A DNA stretch of 64,000 bases, from sequence record KC801932, one strand, 5' to 3'. Within the stretch, counting starts at the first letter, position 1. Each line of letters starts with the position of its first letter. The position numbers and the translations under genes are program-made. Below the pieces are notes generated by a model that did no database searches, had not been told where the DNA came from, and saw only the letters and a list, made by a program, of their open reading frames with translations. Below, one piece after another: positions 13,986 to 59,172 of this stretch. Origin of the DNA: Escherichia phage Lw1.

Positions 13986-14912
13986 TTATTTACGGGAATC
14001 GAAAATCACTTTACCAGCGTAATCCGAACCCATGACAGTCTGAGGTACACCACCTTTATAACGGGTAGAGTAGTTCATCTGTACATCCAGTTCTTTCCAG
14101 CGGATCATTTCTGGGGTAATTGTGCGTTGCAGTACGGCGTTAGCCTCCGCTTCTTTCTTCGCTGCGTACAGTTTAGCATCAGCATCACGTTCGTTGGCAA
14201 TCGCATCGTTTTCACGCGCCTGACGATTTGCTTCCGCTTGTTTTACCTGTTGCTGTGAAGTCTGTTCGACTTTTGCCAGTTCCGCACGAGCGGCGTTAAC
14301 CTGTTCTTCACGAATTTTCGTGTTAGTTACCTGTTCCATGATAACATCCGGCAGGGTGATATCCTGCAAGAATACCTGTTTCACGGTGTAACCGTAAGGA
14401 CGCGCATACTCTTCGACTTCCTGTTGAATTGCGGTCTGCAACTGGTTCTGGATCTTAGCATCAAACAGATCCTGTGCTTTTGGAACCGATTTGCCGAACT
14501 CGCGAACGGTTGACAGCAGTTTTTCGGTTACATACTTATCCAGTGCCTGTTCCTGGTCTCCCGCGTTGATGCGGTTGATAGGCGCTTTGTTACCGTCAAA
14601 TTGCAGCATAACGGTCATATCAACAGTGGATTTAAACTTATCCTGTGAAGGAACCTGCAATTTATCGAACTTCTTCGCAATGTCTTTCGTGCTGAAAGTA
14701 TCGAAATCAGCCAGCGGGTTTACGATATGGAAACCAGGCAGTACAGGTTTCGGAGAAACCTTACCCATGAAGGTCTGAGTTTTGACCGTGCCGTCCTGTA
14801 CTACTGTAAAGGAGTTCGGAACCAGCCACAGTGCGGCTACTACGCCCAGAGCGATCAGAGTGGTTTTCTTCGGGTTGTTCAGGATAGTATTCATATTCAT
14901 AGTATGTCTCAT
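13986..14912 (-). CDS. SPFH/band-7 (prohibitin-like) domain membrane protein
   Basis: N-terminal TM helix LIALGVVAALWLV, then SPFH-like core and long Ala/Gln/Glu-rich coiled-coil tail. Confidence 0.55.
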   Translation of the reverse strand: MRHTMNMNTILNNPKKTTLIALGVVAALWLVPNSFTVVQDGTVKTQTFMGKVSPKPVLPGFHIVNPLADFDTFSTKDIAKKFDKLQVPSQDKFKSTVDMTVMLQFDGNKAPINRINAGDQEQALDKYVTEKLLSTVREFGKSVPKAQDLFDAKIQNQLQTAIQQEVEEYARPYGYTVKQVFLQDITLPDVIMEQVTNTKIREEQVNAARAELAKVEQTSQQQVKQAEANRQARENDAIANERDADAKLYAAKKEAEANAVLQRTITPEMIRWKELDVQMNYSTRYKGGVPQTVMGSDYAGKVIFDSRK

Positions 14913-15370: not shown

Positions 15371-15652
15371 TTATGAACGATGAATAGAAGCGAATTCAGT
15401 TGCTACCCTAAGCCCTAAGCGTTTGCATTCAGGTTCAGATTTACACTGTTTCTGCTGCCATTTTCGTTCCATATAATTATAGAAAAGTTCACTTGTATTT
15501 ACGCTGGGAGGGATGGTGTCTAGATACACCTGTAGCGCTGCATTGATGTAGTAGTCGAATTCTTTCGGTACGACTGAATCATCTGCGTGTGATGCTGGAG
15601 ACAAGATTAACAAACCAAACATCAGCGCTTTGGATATGCGTTTAATGTTCAT
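15371..15652 (-). CDS. small secreted protein (signal peptide MNIKRISKALMFGLLILSPASHA)
   Basis: signal peptide with AxA cleavage motif; TATAAATA on minus strand at 15713-15720. Confidence 0.5.
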   Translation of the reverse strand: MNIKRISKALMFGLLILSPASHADDSVVPKEFDYYINAALQVYLDTIPPSVNTSELFYNYMERKWQQKQCKSEPECKRLGLRVATEFASIHRS

Positions 15653-15760
15653 AAGCAATTTCTCTACGTGCTTACGGATCACCAATAGACCCGTTCCTGT
15701 ATATATTTATAGCAAAAAAGGGGCAATAAGCCCCCTTATGTTAAATCGATATAAAAATAA

Positions 15761-16973: not shown

Positions 16974-17146
16974 TCTCTCGCCTCTTTACGTTCTTTATCG
17001 ATTAAGTCATCAACGAAACTGACAATATCATCCCACCAGTCCAATGCTTCCTGTGATGCTTTCGCGTCACCTTCGAGGAAACGATCGCGGGACTTTACGA
17101 AGTTCTCTACTTTCTTATAGAGTTTTTCTTTATCTGCGTTGATCAT
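16970..17146 (-). CDS. hypothetical small protein (58 aa)
   Basis: ORF below track cut-off; ATGA overlaps at both ends couple it to neighbours. Confidence 0.35.
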   Translation of the reverse strand: MINADKEKLYKKVENFVKSRDRFLEGDAKASQEALDWWDDIVSFVDDLIDKERKEARE

Positions 17147-17619
17147 AATTCCACCTTACGCATATCAATAGACGGATCGAAGTGTACCACGATGGTCGGA
17201 TAGTCGCCAGTAGAATCGTTTATAATGTCTTTAATGCGTTCCCAGTCGCCTCCAGCAAGCCCCGCACCAATAAGAGGGTAACGTTCAGGACACGCCCTGG
17301 CGCTTTCCACGGCGCTTTCAAAGCATGAACGGATTGCGTCGTAATCCACTTGTGGGCCAGCACCCCAGAACTTAAACTGGGTATAGGCGTTGAACACCAT
17401 ACGACCATCCTCTTGAACATAAACAGAGTTACGGCCCAGTTTTTTCTGGTTGCCTTTAAGCGTCATTGCATCCATTCGAAACGCGCCAGGGATTTTCTTC
17501 TTTACTTCTTTTGCAATCCCCGCACCCATATTACAGAAGCAGTTACACCCATGAATCAGGTGTACGTCACGACGAAGGAACAACTCAACAGCGTTCCCTT
17601 TAATCTCTTTGATAATCAT
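17143..17619 (-). CDS. macrodomain protein, TARG1/DarG-like (ADP-ribose processing)
   Basis: LIHGCNCFCNMGAGIAKEV matches the recalled H-C-x-S/N-x-D/C-x-x-MGAGIA core of TARG1/OARD1-type macrodomains; second Gly-rich loop GAGLAGGDW. Confidence 0.55.
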   Translation of the reverse strand: MIIKEIKGNAVELFLRRDVHLIHGCNCFCNMGAGIAKEVKKKIPGAFRMDAMTLKGNQKKLGRNSVYVQEDGRMVFNAYTQFKFWGAGPQVDYDAIRSCFESAVESARACPERYPLIGAGLAGGDWERIKDIINDSTGDYPTIVVHFDPSIDMRKVEL

Positions 17620-18648: not shown

Positions 18649-19296
18649 TTAAATAATTTGCTTTTCTTCTAACAGTTTCGCGGTATGGTTAACCATGCGA
18701 GCATAATCACGGGCTTCTTTCTTCGTATACTTGAAGCCAGCGTTATAGCTTGCCAGCGCCTTTTTCAAGTCGCCTTTGTGGTAATCAAGCCAGTATTCCA
18801 GTTCATGAATGGCAAACTTAGAACCTCCCCGAAGGGATTCGAGCTTATTGATTACTACGCGTTTGGAATATGATTTATCCATCCGTGCGGAAGCACTGTT
18901 TACAGTGACTTGCCAACAGCCATAAGCATGATGACCTTTTTTGCCCTTTCCGGTGTTCTCACATGCGCGAGATTCGATCCAGGCAATAGCCGCTAAATGA
19001 TATCCCAAACGTTTCGATTTTTCTTTTTCAGCAGGTTTTGCAGTCGTTAGATCATAGTCGTTGCCAACTCTGAAAGCATACTCCAAAACCTTTTTCTGCT
19101 TTGGTGTAATTTCGTCCAATTCCTTGACATATGCAGGGGCATTGGCTGGTGCTTTCTTGATCACTGTTGCCTGTTGAAGCGGAAGTGTTGACTGAACAGC
19201 AGGAAGTTTTTCGATGAATTCTCCTAGCGGATCTGTCTTTGCGTGACCAGAAAAAGAGCATAAGAAAATGCTGGTCGCTAAAATAATTTTCTTCAT
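18649..19296 (-). CDS. secreted lytic transglycosylase-like (SLT domain) protein
   Basis: signal peptide; SLT-like motifs IESRACEN...GAYGCWQV and ASYNAG. Confidence 0.5.
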   Translation of the reverse strand: MKKIILATSIFLCSFSGHAKTDPLGEFIEKLPAVQSTLPLQQATVIKKAPANAPAYVKELDEITPKQKKVLEYAFRVGNDYDLTTAKPAEKEKSKRLGYHLAAIAWIESRACENTGKGKKGHHAYGCWQVTVNSASARMDKSYSKRVVINKLESLRGGSKFAIHELEYWLDYHKGDLKKALASYNAGFKYTKKEARDYARMVNHTAKLLEEKQII

Positions 19297-19356
19297 TGAT
19301 TAGTACCTTTTGTAACAAGAGAGGGCAATGATACCCTCACCTTATTATTTACGCAA

Positions 19357-19917
19357 CTAAAATTCTGGTTCTTCCGACTCACCCAGTTTATTGATGATGA
19401 ATTCAGCAACGTTATAGTTTGAAATCGACTTATTGGGATCGTACAGGGAAACGAGTTTTTCGAAAGATACTTGTACGACTTTCTTAAAGTGGACACCCCA
19501 GTTAGTAAAAAAGATCTCACTATTATCGAAACCACAATCAGGACTGAATAAAGCGCGATACTTATATCCGCTATAACCTTCCAGTCGGCTACTATGGTGT
19601 GCGTTACTGGTGATAAGGAAACGCCCCTGATGTGTTTCAACAACATAAAAGAAACCCAGACGTTCTTTATCATCAAATATACTGACAAATTTACGATGTG
19701 ATTCCTCGCGTTCAACACGGGTTTCAATGGCTTTCCATGTTGGTTCGTATTCAGGCCAGTCGTGTTCAACAACAACAGCCTTTAACGGTTCTTTACCATC
19801 ACGGGAACGCTGGCGTTCAACCCGTCGCGCAATAAAACGCAACTTTAGTTGGTCTTCGTATGACATTTTATCTACATCAGACAGTTTGATCACGATATAC
19901 TTTTGTTCGCGTTCCAT
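19357..19917 (-). CDS. hypothetical protein (186 aa)
   Basis: ORF. Confidence 0.45.
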   Translation of the reverse strand: MEREQKYIVIKLSDVDKMSYEDQLKLRFIARRVERQRSRDGKEPLKAVVVEHDWPEYEPTWKAIETRVEREESHRKFVSIFDDKERLGFFYVVETHQGRFLITSNAHHSSRLEGYSGYKYRALFSPDCGFDNSEIFFTNWGVHFKKVVQVSFEKLVSLYDPNKSISNYNVAEFIINKLGESEEPEF

Positions 19918-20093
19918 TATTTCACCACGATTTTATTATGACAGATAGGACAGGTGATCATTCTGTAGGTATCACGACCACCAGTGTAATCAGTATGCGT
20001 TTCTTCACGCACGTCTGTAGCATCATAGGAAAGAAGTGTTTCACATTTCCGACAGATCACTTCTTTTGGTTGCATCTTAACGACTTGTACCAT
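19917..20093 (-). CDS. small zinc-ribbon protein (58 aa; CRKC ... CPIC)
   Basis: ORF below track cut-off; paired CxxC motifs; TAATG coupling to downstream gene. Confidence 0.4.
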   Translation of the reverse strand: MVQVVKMQPKEVICRKCETLLSYDATDVREETHTDYTGGRDTYRMITCPICHNKIVVK

Positions 20094-20100
20094 AATAACC

Positions 20101-20298
20101 TCAGTTCAGATTTAAGTTGACTTTACTACCGCACTTAGGGCAGGTAATGAACTTCTTCACGATGTAGTCAGCAGGACTATAAAACCCGTTGTAAATGGTT
20201 ACTGTCTTGCTTTGAATGTCTTCCAGTTCGTATTCTAACCCAGTACGACAGGATTCACAAACAGTAATTAATTTTGGCGAAACGATAATTTTGATCAT
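20101..20298 (-). CDS. small zinc-ribbon protein (65 aa; CESC ... CPKC)
   Basis: GAGGT RBS before MIKIIV; same CxxC..CPxC architecture as neighbour. Confidence 0.45.
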   Translation of the reverse strand: MIKIIVSPKLITVCESCRTGLEYELEDIQSKTVTIYNGFYSPADYIVKKFITCPKCGSKVNLNLN

Positions 20299-20312
20299 GT
20301 ATACCTCACGAA

Positions 20313-20335
20313 AAAAGGGGCCGAAGCCCCTTTGA
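20313..20335 (-). terminator. hairpin ggggcttcggcccc + T6 terminator
   Basis: perfect GC stem, UUCG-type loop, T-run on minus strand; same stem recurs at 35161-35185. Confidence 0.7.
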
Positions 20336-21679
20336 TTAAAAGTTGTCTTCGACGAATGCTGCCAGGCGTCCACGATACACAGTATTCAGGATTATGTGAC
20401 TAGCATGGTCATATTCTTTAAGTTTTTCAACAGCATAGACAAAACCGTTGTTTACAGCAGTGTTTCGCGGGTTGTCAATCTGCTTAATATTCCCGCATAG
20501 TATCAGAAGTGTATTCTCTCCGCAACGGGAAATAATGGATTTTATTTCATGGTTGCTCAAGTTTTGACATTCGTCAACAATCAGCACTGAACCTTTACCA
20601 GGATCTGGGTGTCCGATAGAACGCCCACGGAAGTAATACAGGCTAGGGAACTGCACCACGCCTTTTTCCAGAAGTCCTTCAACGTACTTGTCAACTTCCG
20701 GTTGATCCTTAAACAGAATATTCAGGCTCGTGATACACGGTTCAACCGATGGTCGGAGTTTTTCACCCAGAGTACCAGGCAAGAACCCTATTTCACCAGA
20801 CAGCGGACTATCTGCCTTGACATACATCAGGTTTGCGAAGTGTCCCGCGTTAACCATGTGCATTGCGCCAGCAACCGCCAGCATTGTTTTACCCGAACCC
20901 GCCGCACCCATGATGGTCACAACGTCATTGTTCTTGTCCAGGATCGCATCAACGAATGACGCTTGCAGAGCATCGCGGGGCTGAATTGTTTTCATCAGCT
21001 TACGCTTTAACGCTTGTTCGTGCTTAATAGGCAACACTTCAAGCTGAAACTCTCCAGCAGCCACCACACGCCCTACAATCTCACCATCCGATAGAATGTA
21101 TTGGTTAGGGTAGAAATCCGCGTCAGGAAGCGATGAATACGTTATAACGGCAACAGGCCCGACATACTCCATGACTTCGACAGTTTCCCAGAACAGCGGC
21201 AGGTCGATATAACCTGAATACAACACATCACTATCTTTCAGCGAGTCATCGCCAGTGTATTGAAGAACCGGACAACCTTTAGACATCGCGATCAACAGCA
21301 TGTTAATGTCACGAGTCACCAGCGTTGCGCCCTGTTGAATACAGGTTGCAATGATCCGCGCATCCTGTTTATCGAGAGGGAACTCTTCGGGGCCGACATA
21401 ATCGACAATTTTGAGTGTTACACTTTCCGGTACTGCTGGGTTTGTTAAGTTTAACGAAACCCCTGTTTGGGTAATTGCTTCATAATTTTGTCCCAGGATT
21501 GCTTTGGACAATAGCCGGATCGCCAGTCGTGCTTCATGAGCGGTTCGCTCTTTGCTTTTCAGGTGATCCAGTTCTTCCATCGTTGCAGCAGTGATAATAA
21601 TTTCAGTATCAGGTTCGATGAAAGAGTAAACTGAATAGGGGTTCGAGATCAAAACGTTTGTATCGAGAACATATTTCAT
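20336..21679 (-). CDS. phoH: PIN-domain PhoH-like ATPase (YlaK-type)
   Basis: N-terminal PIN-like acidic core (LDTNVL...), Walker A GAAGSGKT, Walker B VDECQN. Confidence 0.8.
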   Translation of the reverse strand: MKYVLDTNVLISNPYSVYSFIEPDTEIIITAATMEELDHLKSKERTAHEARLAIRLLSKAILGQNYEAITQTGVSLNLTNPAVPESVTLKIVDYVGPEEFPLDKQDARIIATCIQQGATLVTRDINMLLIAMSKGCPVLQYTGDDSLKDSDVLYSGYIDLPLFWETVEVMEYVGPVAVITYSSLPDADFYPNQYILSDGEIVGRVVAAGEFQLEVLPIKHEQALKRKLMKTIQPRDALQASFVDAILDKNNDVVTIMGAAGSGKTMLAVAGAMHMVNAGHFANLMYVKADSPLSGEIGFLPGTLGEKLRPSVEPCITSLNILFKDQPEVDKYVEGLLEKGVVQFPSLYYFRGRSIGHPDPGKGSVLIVDECQNLSNHEIKSIISRCGENTLLILCGNIKQIDNPRNTAVNNGFVYAVEKLKEYDHASHIILNTVYRGRLAAFVEDNF

Positions 21680-21727
21680 AGAAATTTCCTGTTAATTGCG
21701 GGAACGAGGATTCGCCCCGCACTGCAA

Positions 21728-22195
21728 TTACATACCCAAACGGATGATATGGATATATGGGAACGGGTGTAAATGGCTACGCATACAATAAGTGAGTGTG
21801 CGCACCAGTTCGTAACGTTCGTCCCTTGTTGTGTCGCATTCATCGAAAATCAGGTTGATCGCCTGATGTTCAATTCTACGACCGCGAAATATCGAATCCA
21901 GATCCTGTTTAACTGATAACAGAACTGTATTGTCGCAGTTTTTATCAAGTTCGTATCGAGTAGCACTGTCGATCGCCATATGCTTAGTCGGCGCAACGTA
22001 GATATTCAACACACCTTTTGATTGTTTGATGATATCAAACGCCGCTTTGGTTTTGCCACTCATACGCCCCATATCCAGAGCGGTTTCAAATACTGATACT
22101 TCCCCGATCTGTTCGCCCCATCGACCTTCAATGATACGGGACAGGTGCATATTTCTCGACTGCCTTACAGCGTCAACATAAAATTGTGAAATCAT
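21728..22195 (-). CDS. hypothetical protein (155 aa)
   Basis: ORF. Confidence 0.45.
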   Translation of the reverse strand: MISQFYVDAVRQSRNMHLSRIIEGRWGEQIGEVSVFETALDMGRMSGKTKAAFDIIKQSKGVLNIYVAPTKHMAIDSATRYELDKNCDNTVLLSVKQDLDSIFRGRRIEHQAINLIFDECDTTRDERYELVRTLTYCMRSHLHPFPYIHIIRLGM

Positions 22196-22204
22196 GTTAT
22201 CGCC

Positions 22205-22600
22205 TTACGCAAGTTCAATATGCGGCGCGTCGATGAACTTAGTTTCAATAGGAAGACGCGGATCATTCTTCCAGTTGATACCGAAACGCAGTTTCACGCC
22301 CAGTTCATCACCAGCTTTTTTCATTGCGTCCAGGACAGGCAACCACACTTTCGGGTTTTTCTGCCAACCTTCCGGCAGTACACTAGGATACAGATCCACA
22401 GCATCGCCAGTGATGTGCTTTGATGCCATTGTCTGAGATACACCCTGGCGCACGTATTCGCGCTGTTGCTCTACGGTACGCAGACCTTCACGTACACCGA
22501 AATCAACGGTTGAGAGTTCAAGAGCACGGTTTACAACCTTAACCAGTTCAGGCTTAACACCTTTCAGGTTGTTCAGGCTTTTCTGACTAAATTTAAACAT
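22205..22600 (-). CDS. L-alanyl-D-glutamate peptidase (peptidase M15), T5-type endolysin
   Basis: 131 aa; collinear with recalled T5 endolysin (KPEL.KV..RALELS..DF....G.RT...Q, SKHITGDA.D, GVKLRFG, HIEL). Confidence 0.75.
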   Translation of the reverse strand: MFKFSQKSLNNLKGVKPELVKVVNRALELSTVDFGVREGLRTVEQQREYVRQGVSQTMASKHITGDAVDLYPSVLPEGWQKNPKVWLPVLDAMKKAGDELGVKLRFGINWKNDPRLPIETKFIDAPHIELA

Positions 22601-22666
22601 ACATACCTCTTTATGAAAATACCCTATGGGCTACACAGGGTATTTACGGTTTAAGAGGCGCAACAG

Positions 22667-39693: not shown

Positions 39694-41456
39694 GATACGG
39701 TGGAAATGCAAACTCCCCGTTTTTTGATGGGGTTGTTGAAGAAGTTGATGACCCGTTATTTCTGGGACGGGTTCGGGTTCGCGTATTTGGTGAACACCCA
39801 GCACAGAAACAGAAATCTGAAACTATCGGTATTCCTGTTGAGGAATTGCCGTGGATGGTTCCTATCCAGAACATCACCAGCGCTGCTGTATCAGGAGTTG
39901 GGTTCTCTCCGACTGGTATCGTAAGAGGTAGCTTTGTATTCGGCGTATGGCGCGATAAATGGCATCAGGACGGCGTTATACTGGGAACCTATGCAGGGCA
40001 GTATGTTGAGAAGCCCGACACTCAGAAAGGCTTCTGTGACCCGTTTGGTGAGTATCCCCGCTACGTTGGTAACGATGTCAACGTATTGGCTCGTGGTGGT
40101 GTAGAAGGTAGGACATCAAGTAGTGTTGTTATCCGTGATGCAAACAGTTCATTGGCAGTAAACCCAGACGATCGCCCACTGGACGAAATACCGGAAGATA
40201 ACCGACCGGACACTGGCGGTTTCACCATTGAAACAATGATCAAGCAGGATGAAGGTATTCGGTTGACGTGGTATTATGATGTTAAAGGTTATACAATCGG
40301 GATTGGACACTTTTTCTTAACCGCTCCACAAGGTACAGATCCGGCAGTTGTTAACGCAGCGTTATCTAAACAAATTGGTAGAACTGTTACTGGTGTTCCT
40401 GGATCAATCACAGCAGAAGAAGCGGGCGTTTTATTTCAGCAAGATTTAGCTAAAGTTCATAGAGATATTCAGAATAATAGCAAAGTTCGTGAAGTATATC
40501 ATGATCTTAACCGTCCGCGCCAGATGGCTATTGAAAACATGTGCTTTCAGATGGGTGTTGGTGGTGTAGCAAAATTTACAAATGCTCTGGCTGCTATGAA
40601 GAGTCAGGACTGGCAAACCGCCTACAACGAACTGAGAAACTCAACATGGGCTAACCAGACACCAGGACGTTCTTCACGCGTATCTAAAATCGTGCTGACC
40701 GGAAACCTTGAATCATATGGTGTTATGGTTCCAGATCCAGAAGGAAGAAGCCTAAGCGCTGCTTATAACGCTGTAGTTCTGCAAGCCAGTAACCCAGAAG
40801 ACCCTTTTGTTCCTGGTGATACCCGTGTAATGTTCGAGGAACCAAAATCTGCATACGCTGCTGAATATCCTTACAATATGGTGTTTGAATCTCGTTCGGG
40901 ACATATTCAAGAATTCGACGATACACCAGGATTTGAACGTTATAACCGCGTTCACCCGGCAGGGACATATGAAGAAATTCGTCCTGATGGAAGCCGTGTC
41001 GTAAAAATTATGGGTGATGATTATCAGATTGTTATGCAGGGCAGGAAACTGAACGTTAAAGGCAATTTGCAAGTGGTAGTCGAAGGTGATGCGTTCATTT
41101 ACAATATGGGTAACGTTCAACAGACTGTTGATGGAAACGTAACTGAGTTCGTGCGCGGTAACGTAAACCAGACTGTCGAGGGTGAATATGTGGGACGCGT
41201 AAAAGGTAACGCAGAATTAACCGTCGAAAAAGATGCTACTATAAACGTGGATCAGAATTTAATGGCTAACGTTAAACAGAATGCAACTGTTAACGTAACC
41301 GAAGATGCAACTGTTACCGCAAAAAATGCGATGATGGATATTGAACAAGACTTCGATTTAAACGCGAACAATATCACAATGGTTGCCCGACAAAATACAT
41401 TAATAGATTCCGGTTCTCTGACTAAGATAACTGGTGGAACAGTCCAGGTAGGTTAA
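39690..41456 (+). CDS. 5: baseplate central spike / tail lysozyme gp5
   Basis: N-terminal OB domain (LGRVRVRVFGEH), T4-lysozyme-type domain (GYTIGIGHF), C-terminal beta-helix VxGxxxxxVEG repeats. Confidence 0.9.
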   Translation: MRYGGNANSPFFDGVVEEVDDPLFLGRVRVRVFGEHPAQKQKSETIGIPVEELPWMVPIQNITSAAVSGVGFSPTGIVRGSFVFGVWRDKWHQDGVILGTYAGQYVEKPDTQKGFCDPFGEYPRYVGNDVNVLARGGVEGRTSSSVVIRDANSSLAVNPDDRPLDEIPEDNRPDTGGFTIETMIKQDEGIRLTWYYDVKGYTIGIGHFFLTAPQGTDPAVVNAALSKQIGRTVTGVPGSITAEEAGVLFQQDLAKVHRDIQNNSKVREVYHDLNRPRQMAIENMCFQMGVGGVAKFTNALAAMKSQDWQTAYNELRNSTWANQTPGRSSRVSKIVLTGNLESYGVMVPDPEGRSLSAAYNAVVLQASNPEDPFVPGDTRVMFEEPKSAYAAEYPYNMVFESRSGHIQEFDDTPGFERYNRVHPAGTYEEIRPDGSRVVKIMGDDYQIVMQGRKLNVKGNLQVVVEGDAFIYNMGNVQQTVDGNVTEFVRGNVNQTVEGEYVGRVKGNAELTVEKDATINVDQNLMANVKQNATVNVTEDATVTAKNAMMDIEQDFDLNANNITMVARQNTLIDSGSLTKITGGTVQVG

Positions 41457-58398: not shown

Positions 58399-59172
58399 AT
58401 GGGTATAGGCGAAAGTCTGTACCCTCTTCGAAGAGGATTTTATGATATGGTTGCAAAAATCTCTATAGAACAAAGAGAACATCAATTAAAAGAACGTTGT
58501 GCGGAATTAGAACTATCTTTTGATGGATGGGTAGACCAATCAGCGATCACAAAATATTCAAAGTTTTATGTTGTTTGCAGTAAAGGACATAGAACAGAAA
58601 AACAGATCAAACCATTTGTCAACAAAAGTCGTCCAAACGGATGTTATTTGTGTTCCCCTAAGATGAAAATATCAAAGGAAAACAGAATCGAGGAAATCAA
58701 AACTCTTGCAGATTCAATTGGATATACATTCGTAGATTTCGTTGGGGTGTATAAAGATGCACACACAAAAATATCAATGGTTTGCGATAAAGGCCATAAT
58801 TGGGATGTAAGTATAGTTGCTTTTCTCAATCAAGGTCATCGCTGTAAAAAATGCGCAACGTCTGGGTTCAATCCGAACAAACCAGCATACGTATACGTAC
58901 AATCACTATCTGGAAAATTTCTGAAATTTGGGATAACCAACAGAACACCAAAGAAAAGAATGTGTGCGCAATCAAATAAATCCGTTTATAAACACGAACT
59001 GGTTTATCAAAAATTATTCGATAAAGGTATTGATGCAATGAGTATTGAACAGAAGATCAAACAATCTCTTGTTTGTGGCGTAGTCGATAAATCAGATATG
59101 ATGGATGGATATACAGAAACAACAGATATATCCAATTACGATAAACTGTTGAATATTATAGAAGGAGTATAA
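58399..59172 (+). CDS. T5orf172/GIY-YIG-like putative homing endonuclease inserted between genes 14 and 15
   Basis: two C-x-KGH...C-x2-C zinc-finger-like modules followed by AYVYVQSLSGKFLKFGITNRTPKKR (GIY-YIG-like); start may be the internal MVAKIS. Confidence 0.5.
   Translation: MGIGESLYPLRRGFYDMVAKISIEQREHQLKERCAELELSFDGWVDQSAITKYSKFYVVCSKGHRTEKQIKPFVNKSRPNGCYLCSPKMKISKENRIEEIKTLADSIGYTFVDFVGVYKDAHTKISMVCDKGHNWDVSIVAFLNQGHRCKKCATSGFNPNKPAYVYVQSLSGKFLKFGITNRTPKKRMCAQSNKSVYKHELVYQKLFDKGIDAMSIEQKIKQSLVCGVVDKSDMMDGYTETTDISNYDKLLNIIEGV

Follow-up and report, generated by a model that had tools for sequence, protein, structure and literature searches.

An M15 peptidase endolysin in a probably otherwise T4-type lysis system of Escherichia phage Lw1

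The stretch of Escherichia phage Lw1 DNA analysed here (the window; 64,000 nucleotides of record KC801932) comes from a T4 relative of the RB16/RB43 pseudo-T-even type (Pseudotevenvirus). Megablast matched it to 172 Straboviridae records, the closest being RB16 with 92.8% DNA identity, and the window is colinear with RB16 only over positions 64.0–129.4 kb of that genome. The gene order endolysin, vs.1, vs, tk.4, tk, rI, rI.-1 parallels the T4 order e, vs.1, vs, tk.4, tk, rI, rI.-1, with one additional 133-aa open reading frame between vs and vs.1. The features related to lysis are listed in Table 1.

Table 1. Lysis-related features of the Lw1 window and the evidence for them
Feature	Position	Strand	Evidence
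rI, T-holin-specific antiholin (lysis inhibition)	15371..15652	minus	31.5% identity to T4 RI, E=5e-9; phrog_1246, E=1.7e-29
Strong intrinsic-terminator-like hairpin, 13 pairs then T run, directly after the vs.1 stop codon	18617..18646	minus	
vs.1 orthologue, 215-aa predicted exported GH23/SLT-fold protein	18649..19296	minus	Homology, PHROG, position
Endolysin, 131-aa predicted cytoplasmic Zn-dependent M15C L-alanyl-D-glutamate peptidase (EndoRB43/EndoT5 family)	22205..22600	minus	Homology
Endolysin leader	22605..22659	minus	Fold -23.8 kcal/mol, z=-5.8
T4 e-like (GH24) lysozyme domain within baseplate hub protein gp5	40236..40718	+	43% identity to T4 e, E=3e-34

The 131-aa open reading frame was confirmed and, judged from its sequence, its product is an M15C L-alanyl-D-glutamate peptidase endolysin. 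The original prediction had aligned it with the phage T5 peptidase and not with T4 lysozyme, and both parts hold: residues 2–130 match the T5 L-alanyl-D-glutamate peptidase (EndoT5, the M15C prototype; PDB 2MXZ/8P3A) with E=4.7e-23, tblastn against the T5 lys product gives 43% identity over the full length, and the T4 e product belongs to a different enzyme family. The end-to-end alignment with EndoT5 includes the motifs SKHITGDAVD and DAPHIEL and the H-x6-D...D-x2-H active site. The full predicted set of functional residues is present, namely the Zn ligands H62, D69 and H127 (EndoT5 H66, D73 and H133), the catalytic D124 (D130) and the conserved active-site tryptophan W110 (W114), whose roles in EndoT5 have been defined (PMC10487532); bond specificity is predicted to be equal. 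The two enzymes differ in the Ca2+-binding regulatory loop of T5, ADWNASGDYHDEIKRGTYDGGH, which is not conserved and reads INWKNDPRLPIETKFIDAPH in the Lw1 protein; Ca2+ regulation is reported to be absent from EndoRB43 (PMC10487532). Nearer relatives (60–73% identity) are carried by phage contigs of 40–50 kb, and the nearest donor lineage is therefore not that of T5.

Much closer homologues are found among the pseudo-T-even phages, from which EndoRB43 and EndoRB49/KP27 endolysin are known as L-alanoyl-D-glutamate peptidases. The Lw1 protein is 99.2% identical to its RB16 orthologue and 90% identical to EndoRB43 (RB43 ORF159c, YP_239135), and it matches phrog_465 ('endolysin') with E=7.7e-55. 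It shares with the EndoRB43 type the length of 131 aa, the genomic position, the Zn-binding and catalytic residues and a single globular domain without a wall-binding domain; it departs from EndoRB43 at only about 10% of its positions, and no functional difference is expected. [quoted passage not shown]

A VanY/VanX-like D,D-peptidase or wall-remodelling accessory protein, with the real endolysin encoded elsewhere, would be in keeping with the sole Pfam match of the 131-aa protein, which is to a 'D-alanyl-D-alanine carboxypeptidase' family (Peptidase_M15_4, PF13539). That match scores 18.1 bits, under the gathering cut-off of 25 bits, and the model has only 70 positions; the low score weakens the Pfam label, not the homology established by the other tests. 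NCBIfam gave no match for the endolysin, the Vs.1-like protein discussed below or T4 Vs.1. The lytic activity and bond specificity of the 90%-identical EndoRB43 speak against a function outside lysis, as do the leader of the gene, which looks like the leader of a late lysis gene, and the complete RB16 genome, in which neither tblastn with T4 e nor the annotation offers another endolysin candidate. We found no genetic proof that lysis in vivo relies on the M15 gene as its only endolysin gene. On the grounds given, we consider a non-lytic role highly improbable.

The endolysin gene is located between nudE and vs.1, in the same gene-order stretch as T4 e, and its presence at roughly the e position is a genuine non-orthologous replacement. 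T4 gpe and the Lw1 enzyme have in common the role of a holin-dependent cytoplasmic endolysin and the position upstream of vs.1, whereas gpe is a GH24 muramidase and the Lw1 protein a peptidase, unrelated in fold and chemistry. As had been predicted, tblastn detected neither a T4-type t nor a free-standing e in the window, and the only e match there is the lysozyme domain of gene 5, which is not an endolysin. A canonical e elsewhere had been named as a possible objection; in the complete RB16 genome the single match to T4 e is again gene 5, and RB16, RB43 and RB49 are listed as lacking gene e (PMC3014915). The exchange is already documented for the RB16/RB43-like group by the EndoRB43 papers and by the genome announcement of phage Miller (2015, PMC4299905), which states an endolysin-only exchange for Miller and other RB43-like phages.

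The second murein-active candidate, the 215-aa open reading frame, was also confirmed. It had been described as a signal-peptide-bearing protein with SLT-like motifs, and this description is accurate: the protein scores 28.5 bits against Pfam SLT (gathering score 21.3), and it begins with what reads as a Sec-type signal peptide, MKKIILATSIFLCSFSGHA, followed by KT. The signal peptide (residues ∼1–19) is followed by a low-confidence linker to residue ∼50 and a catalytic domain spanning residues 55–215, which has the goose-lysozyme/SLT fold. The three SLT motifs, E108-S, Q129 and S183-Y-N-x-G187, are invariant in 38 homologues. The predicted catalytic E108 (codon 18973–18975) is present in 38 of 38, with S or T at position 109 in every one. 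Nearly all members of this set have signal-peptide-like N-termini, and C112/C127 form a clade-specific cysteine pair. A lipoprotein reading was rejected, since Cys13 lacks a lipobox and is not conserved.

By its sequence this protein is the orthologue of T4 Vs.1, and hence marks no difference from T4. The two proteins are 33% identical over 153 aa (BLASTP, E=1e-17), both match phrog_600 over the full length (E=2.5e-53 for the Lw1 protein and E=2.1e-68 for T4 Vs.1), and the genes share the vs neighbourhood with the order rI-tk-vs-vs.1. The signal peptide and vs as neighbour are common to both, while the Lw1 protein is 34 aa longer, owing to a longer N-terminal linker, and T4 Vs.1 lacks the Cys112/Cys127 pair. 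The ES, Q and SYNxG motifs and the GH23 fold are also shared with the bacterial family-1 lytic transglycosylases (Slt70, MltF and MltD; GH23), from which the Lw1 protein differs by having no superhelical, LysM or lipoprotein anchoring module. SLT similarity of vs.1 has been noted in six of six T4-like genomes (Nolan et al. 2006, PMC1524935). The Lw1 protein is a predicted periplasmic lytic transglycosylase, a class inseparable from g-type lysozyme by sequence or fold.

With its signal peptide, SLT fold and intact catalytic Glu, the Vs.1-like protein could be a second, holin-independent, Sec-exported endolysin that acts directly in lysis. 'Some role in cell lysis' was suggested for vs.1 by Nolan et al. 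(PMC1524935), and in Lw1 its start codon is preceded, at a distance of 49 nt, by a TAAATA-containing motif resembling those before late genes. T4 vs.1, however, is not preceded by a late promoter, and an exported, constitutively active muralytic enzyme that is made early should need a restraint, of which none is evident. By established T4 genetics, moreover, lysis by T4 requires gene e even though Vs.1 is present. The vs.1 reading frame also appears split by a frameshift in the viable phage RB16, so the gene may be dispensable. We found no experiments on the activity or phenotype of Vs.1, and consider a direct endolysin function unlikely.

The original prediction had gone further and suggested module replacement in the lysis system. 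In its full form this would mean that a T5-type peptidase and a secreted SLT enzyme arrived in a foreign cassette and that the T4-type holin and e are absent. In the 64-kb window, tblastn with T4 t indeed gave nothing significant, no free-standing e was found, and less than 4 kb holds both murein-active genes. But between the two open reading frames lie five unrelated genes, PIN-PhoH among them, the gene of the SLT protein is orthologous to T4 vs.1 and occupies the T4 position, and the window contains rI, the product of which is specific for the T holin and which has a perfect late promoter, TATAAATA, upstream (15704–15711), as in T4. A holin and spanins were found in the complete genome of RB16: t, whose product is 49% identical to T4 T and matches phrog_860, lies beside gene 38 at 172.9 kb, and pseT.3/pseT.2 are annotated as spanins at 46.5–47.2 kb. 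Both positions are outside the window-colinear region, and the missing holin is thus most probably an effect of the window edge. The claim that the lysis set differs from that of T4 consequently stands for the endolysin and falls for the SLT-like protein, and 'module replacement' overstates what is an exchange of the endolysin. For the relatives, replacement of the whole module is already contradicted, and for Lw1 we regard it as highly improbable.

The lysis system of Lw1 is very probably that of T4 with the endolysin alone exchanged, as in other phages of the RB16/RB43 type. The holin and spanins are predicted for Lw1 from relatives with 80–93% DNA identity, the corresponding genome parts lying outside the window, and we infer that the remainder of the Lw1 genome resembles RB16. 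The single-domain Zn2+ peptidase shows neither a signal peptide nor a hydrophobic segment. Having no export signal, it would need to wait for a T-type holin, encoded adjoining tail-fibre gene 38 in the closest relatives, to open the inner membrane; it would then cut the L-Ala-D-iGlu bond of the peptidoglycan stem peptide. The RI protein encoded in the window would delay the holin upon superinfection, and PseT.3/PseT.2 spanins, the genes of which lie at another site in the relatives, would finally disrupt the outer membrane. The Vs.1 orthologue, conserved across T4-like phages and outside the swap, most likely acts on murein in the periplasm of the infected cell as a lytic transglycosylase, remodelling or nicking it, an accessory function that would be insufficient for lysis.

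Upstream of the endolysin gene the transcript is predicted to fold such that the Shine-Dalgarno (SD) sequence AAGAGGU (22605–22611) pairs with GCCUCUU (22653–22659) in an outer stem of 7 bp, with a probability of SD pairing of 0.96 that ranks third among the 70 leaders of the window. The outer stem encloses a 12-bp hairpin (22617–22645) followed by UUUUC, and a late-promoter-like sequence, CGTAAATA (22641–22648), overlaps the 5′ arm of this inner hairpin. The leader sequence is almost unchanged in RB16, RB43, leN, CfP1 and one Slopekvirus, the last having one change that converts a G-U pair to G-C; in two metagenomic contigs one leader change breaks a pair. A scan of IMG/VR gave 80 loci, T4-like in only seven. 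The T4-like relatives retrieved vary too little in this sequence to reveal covariation. In the RB49-like phages the SD and AUG of the M15 endolysin gene are covered by another hairpin, whose 5′ arm likewise contains a TAAATA box.

The predicted sequestration of the SD by the peptidase leader is much like that in the T4 e leader, where an anti-SD CCUCUU pairs with the SD and a TAAATA box lies in between (PMC3014915). The Lw1 leader differs by its additional terminator-like inner hairpin and by a promoter-like box that reads CGTAAATA/CATAAATA, not TATAAATA. This observation may be new: we found no description in the literature of such leader control for an M15 endolysin gene, and Uzan and Miller (2010) examined the leader only in phages having gene e. 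By analogy, the leader may serve timing. In early read-through transcripts the CCUCUU-SD pairing and the terminator-like hairpin would form, while late transcripts, initiated at the C(G/A)TAAATA box inside the leader, would not contain the 5′ arms and would be translated. That e-style timing control was kept or re-created when the M15 gene replaced a T4-type lysozyme gene is a tentative proposal, which we hold to be possible though somewhat doubtful. Perfect TATAAATA sites are not enriched in the window (6 found versus 3.25 expected) and none precedes the endolysin gene or vs.1; CGTAAATA is likewise not enriched. A scan for sigma-70 promoters found sites no commoner than in shuffled sequence, and no early promoter is claimed. 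A PeSL-type cassette (PMC2839356) was not adopted as an explanation of the leader, the sigma-70 consensus being absent there.

The Lw1 locus adds very little that is new, being a clean textbook case in which one lysis component was replaced by a non-orthologous one: a peptidase took the place of a muramidase, while the T4 holin/antiholin/spanin system around it was probably conserved, in a hyperplastic genome region. Peptidases of the EndoRB43 type have already been studied as thermostable enzybiotics, and the Lw1 allele is one more close variant. The points of interest are what Vs.1, the conserved and predicted periplasmic transglycosylase, does in T4-like phages and the T4 e-like translational gating that the leader may impose on the peptidase gene.

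The window is part of a T4-like phage of the genus Pseudotevenvirus. Both ORFs named in the original prediction, encoding proteins of 131 and 215 residues, are present on the minus strand, and a nucleotide search showed the 7-kb stretch around them to be 92.8% identical to Escherichia phage RB16, ∼90% to Citrobacter phages IME-CF2, CfP1 and Miller, and ∼80% to RB43. The window is colinear with 64.0–129.4 kb of RB16, for which the complete, reassembled genome was used. The T4 gene order (endolysin, vs.1, vs, tk.4, tk, rI and rI.-1, with nudE further upstream) is kept, and the peptidase gene therefore occupies roughly the slot of T4 e.

The 131-residue protein shows 99.2% identity with the RB16 'endolysin' and 90% with RB43 ORF159c. 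Its PHROGs class is 'endolysin' (E=7.7e-55); with Pfam M15_4 it scores below the threshold, and NCBIfam offers no corresponding model. A PDB search gave two L-alanyl-D-glutamate endopeptidases at ∼1e-27 and, at 4.7e-23 and spanning residues 2–130/131, the T5 enzyme (2MXZ/8P3A), with 43% identity to the T5 lys product. The motifs SKHITGDAVD and DAPHIEL align with SKHITGDAID and DGGHVEL of T5, and therefore H62, D69 and H127 correspond to the zinc ligands H66, D73 and H133, while D124 aligns with the catalytic D130 and W110 with the conserved W114 (EndoT5 roles as in PMC10487532). At the family level, the T5-type assignment of the original prediction is thus correct. The RB43 protein YP_239135 has been named as an orthologue that lacks the Ca2+ regulation of EndoT5 (PMC10487532). 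M15 endolysins much closer than that of T5 (60–73% versus 43% identity) are found in many 40–50 kb phage or prophage contigs, taken from IMG/VR contigs of 30–60 kb (L020–L061), and this gives a hint of where the T4-like phages may have acquired the gene. Since its sequence has no hydrophobic N-terminus, the 131-residue protein should be a cytoplasmic, holin-dependent endolysin.

The absence of T4-type e and t genes from the window was also borne out, in that T4 e matches only the lysozyme domain of gp5 and T4 t gave no match in the window. A canonical e gene elsewhere would have argued against the M15 enzyme as the endolysin, but in the complete RB16 genome e matches gene 5 only. RB16, RB43 and RB49 were listed as lacking gene e by Uzan and Miller (PMC3014915); the endolysin exchange is already published and its biology already known. 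The search for holin and spanin genes in RB16 placed t at 172.9 kb, adjacent to gene 38 (49% identity to T4 T; phrog_860), and the spanin genes pseT.3/pseT.2 at 46.5–47.2 kb, both outside the part of the genome covered by the window. Their presence speaks for retained T4 parts and against replacement of the whole lysis module, as does that of rI within the window.

The SLT-like protein of 215 residues had been counted as a further difference from T4, but it is no departure from T4: T4 Vs.1 is homologous to it (33% identity over 153 residues, E=1e-17), phrog_600 covers the full length of the two proteins and the gene is located where T4 vs.1 is. It is 91% identical to the product of the RB43 gene annotated vs.1, and its Pfam SLT match exceeds the gathering score. 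Like nearly all members of its family, the protein begins with what looks like a Sec signal peptide, MKKIILATSIFLCSFSGHA/KT; a lipoprotein reading was rejected, as Cys13 has no lipobox and is unconserved. An alignment of 38 homologues shows no change at E108 or in S183-Y184-N185-x-G187 and only S or T at position 109, while Q129 is found in 35. C112 and C127, which flank the catalytic-Glu helix, occur only as a pair: 13 sequences have both and 25 have neither, and the 13 are all of the Pseudotevenvirus-clade proteins, the 25 including those of T4 type. Such a pattern would fit a disulfide specific to the clade, in a protein that is exported, but it may also go back to one evolutionary event. 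No experimental work on Vs.1 was found in the literature. In RB16 the vs.1 frame is broken by a frameshift into RB16p140 and RB16p139 (RB16 sequence L001, 4034–5218, opposite the intact gene of the window), so that either the gene is dispensable there or the sequence contains an error. Directly upstream of vs.1, RB16 also carries a homing-endonuclease gene of the HNH type, RB16p141 (∼560 bp), that is missing from the window, where 19270/19293 joins RB16 83651/84210.

The endolysin leader may represent a new observation. In its predicted fold, GCCUCUU and the Shine-Dalgarno (SD) sequence AAGAGGU form an outer stem of 7 bp around a 12-bp terminator-like hairpin, which is followed by UUUUC. The SD is predicted to be paired with a probability of 0.96, ranking third of 70 leaders in the window. 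A late-promoter-like CGTAAATA, replaced in several relatives by CATAAATA, overlaps the 5′ arm of the inner hairpin. The T4 e leader, the control of which is reviewed in PMC3014915, has the same logic of anti-SD, two TATAAATA boxes and SD. The M15 endolysin gene of a Krischvirus (RB49-like) has a different hairpin over the SD and AUG, with TCTAAATA in its 5′ arm, and this fold is statistically not strong (z=−1.5). Across RB16, RB43, leN, CfP1 and a Slopekvirus the leader sequence hardly changes and is therefore too conserved for a covariation test, so that we propose an e-like control as a hypothesis.

Elsewhere in the window, late genes 53, 7, 3 and 4 have one of the NNTAAATA variants CCTAAATA, CATAAATA or AATAAATA upstream in place of TATAAATA, the canonical late promoter of T4, of which the 64 kb contain only six perfect copies. 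In this phage group, the late-promoter consensus may be less strict at its first two positions.

Features of the window
Feature	Position	Strand	Remarks
M15 endolysin gene	22205–22600	minus	
Endolysin leader	22605–22659	minus	fold −23.8 kcal/mol, z=−5.8
PIN–PhoH gene	20336–21679	minus	447 aa
phrog_2834 ORFs	19917–20093, 20101–20373	minus	zinc-ribbon-like
vs.1	18649–19296	minus	
C112/C127 region of vs.1	18973–19296		
tk.4	17143–17619	minus	macro domain; also in RB43
Stretch without RB16 match	16976–17616		
rI	15371–15652		T-specific antiholin; perfect TATAAATA upstream, as in T4
phrog_200 gene	13986–14912	minus	308 aa
gp5 lysozyme domain	40236–40718		sole T4 e match
CCTAAATA/CATAAATA/AATAAATA sites	39103, 45506, 58385	plus	with the next row: genes 53, 7, 3, 4 and ORF starting at 58399
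CCTAAATA/CATAAATA/AATAAATA sites	36690, 38632	minus	

Several neighbouring genes have features of their own. Between vs.1 and the endolysin gene, where T4 has no counterpart, lies a fusion of an N-terminal PIN domain to a PhoH-like ATPase, an architecture of the PhoH2 type. Two adjacent small ORFs that both match phrog_2834 look like a tandem duplication. Although RB16 is the closest relative, nothing in it matches the stretch that corresponds to tk.4. Just downstream of rI.-1, the phrog_200 protein combines an N-terminal membrane segment with a long charged coiled region and by eye looks SPFH/band-7-like; the RB16 annotation is 'lipoprotein', yet no obvious lipobox is present.

We propose that late in infection the T holin would permeabilize the inner membrane, allowing the zinc peptidase to reach the murein and remove peptide cross-links at L-Ala-D-iGlu, and that the spanins would then finish off the outer membrane, with RI delaying T on superinfection. 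Vs.1 would be exported independently and probably plays an accessory part, nicking or remodelling the murein. T4 requires e for lysis although Vs.1 is present, and Vs.1 is therefore not a sufficient endolysin. Hence the observation behind the original prediction is confirmed, and its interpretation as 'module replacement' is only partly right: only the endolysin has been swapped, for a member of a different enzyme family and within a hyperplastic region, and the T4 framework of holin, antiholin and spanins is probably retained.
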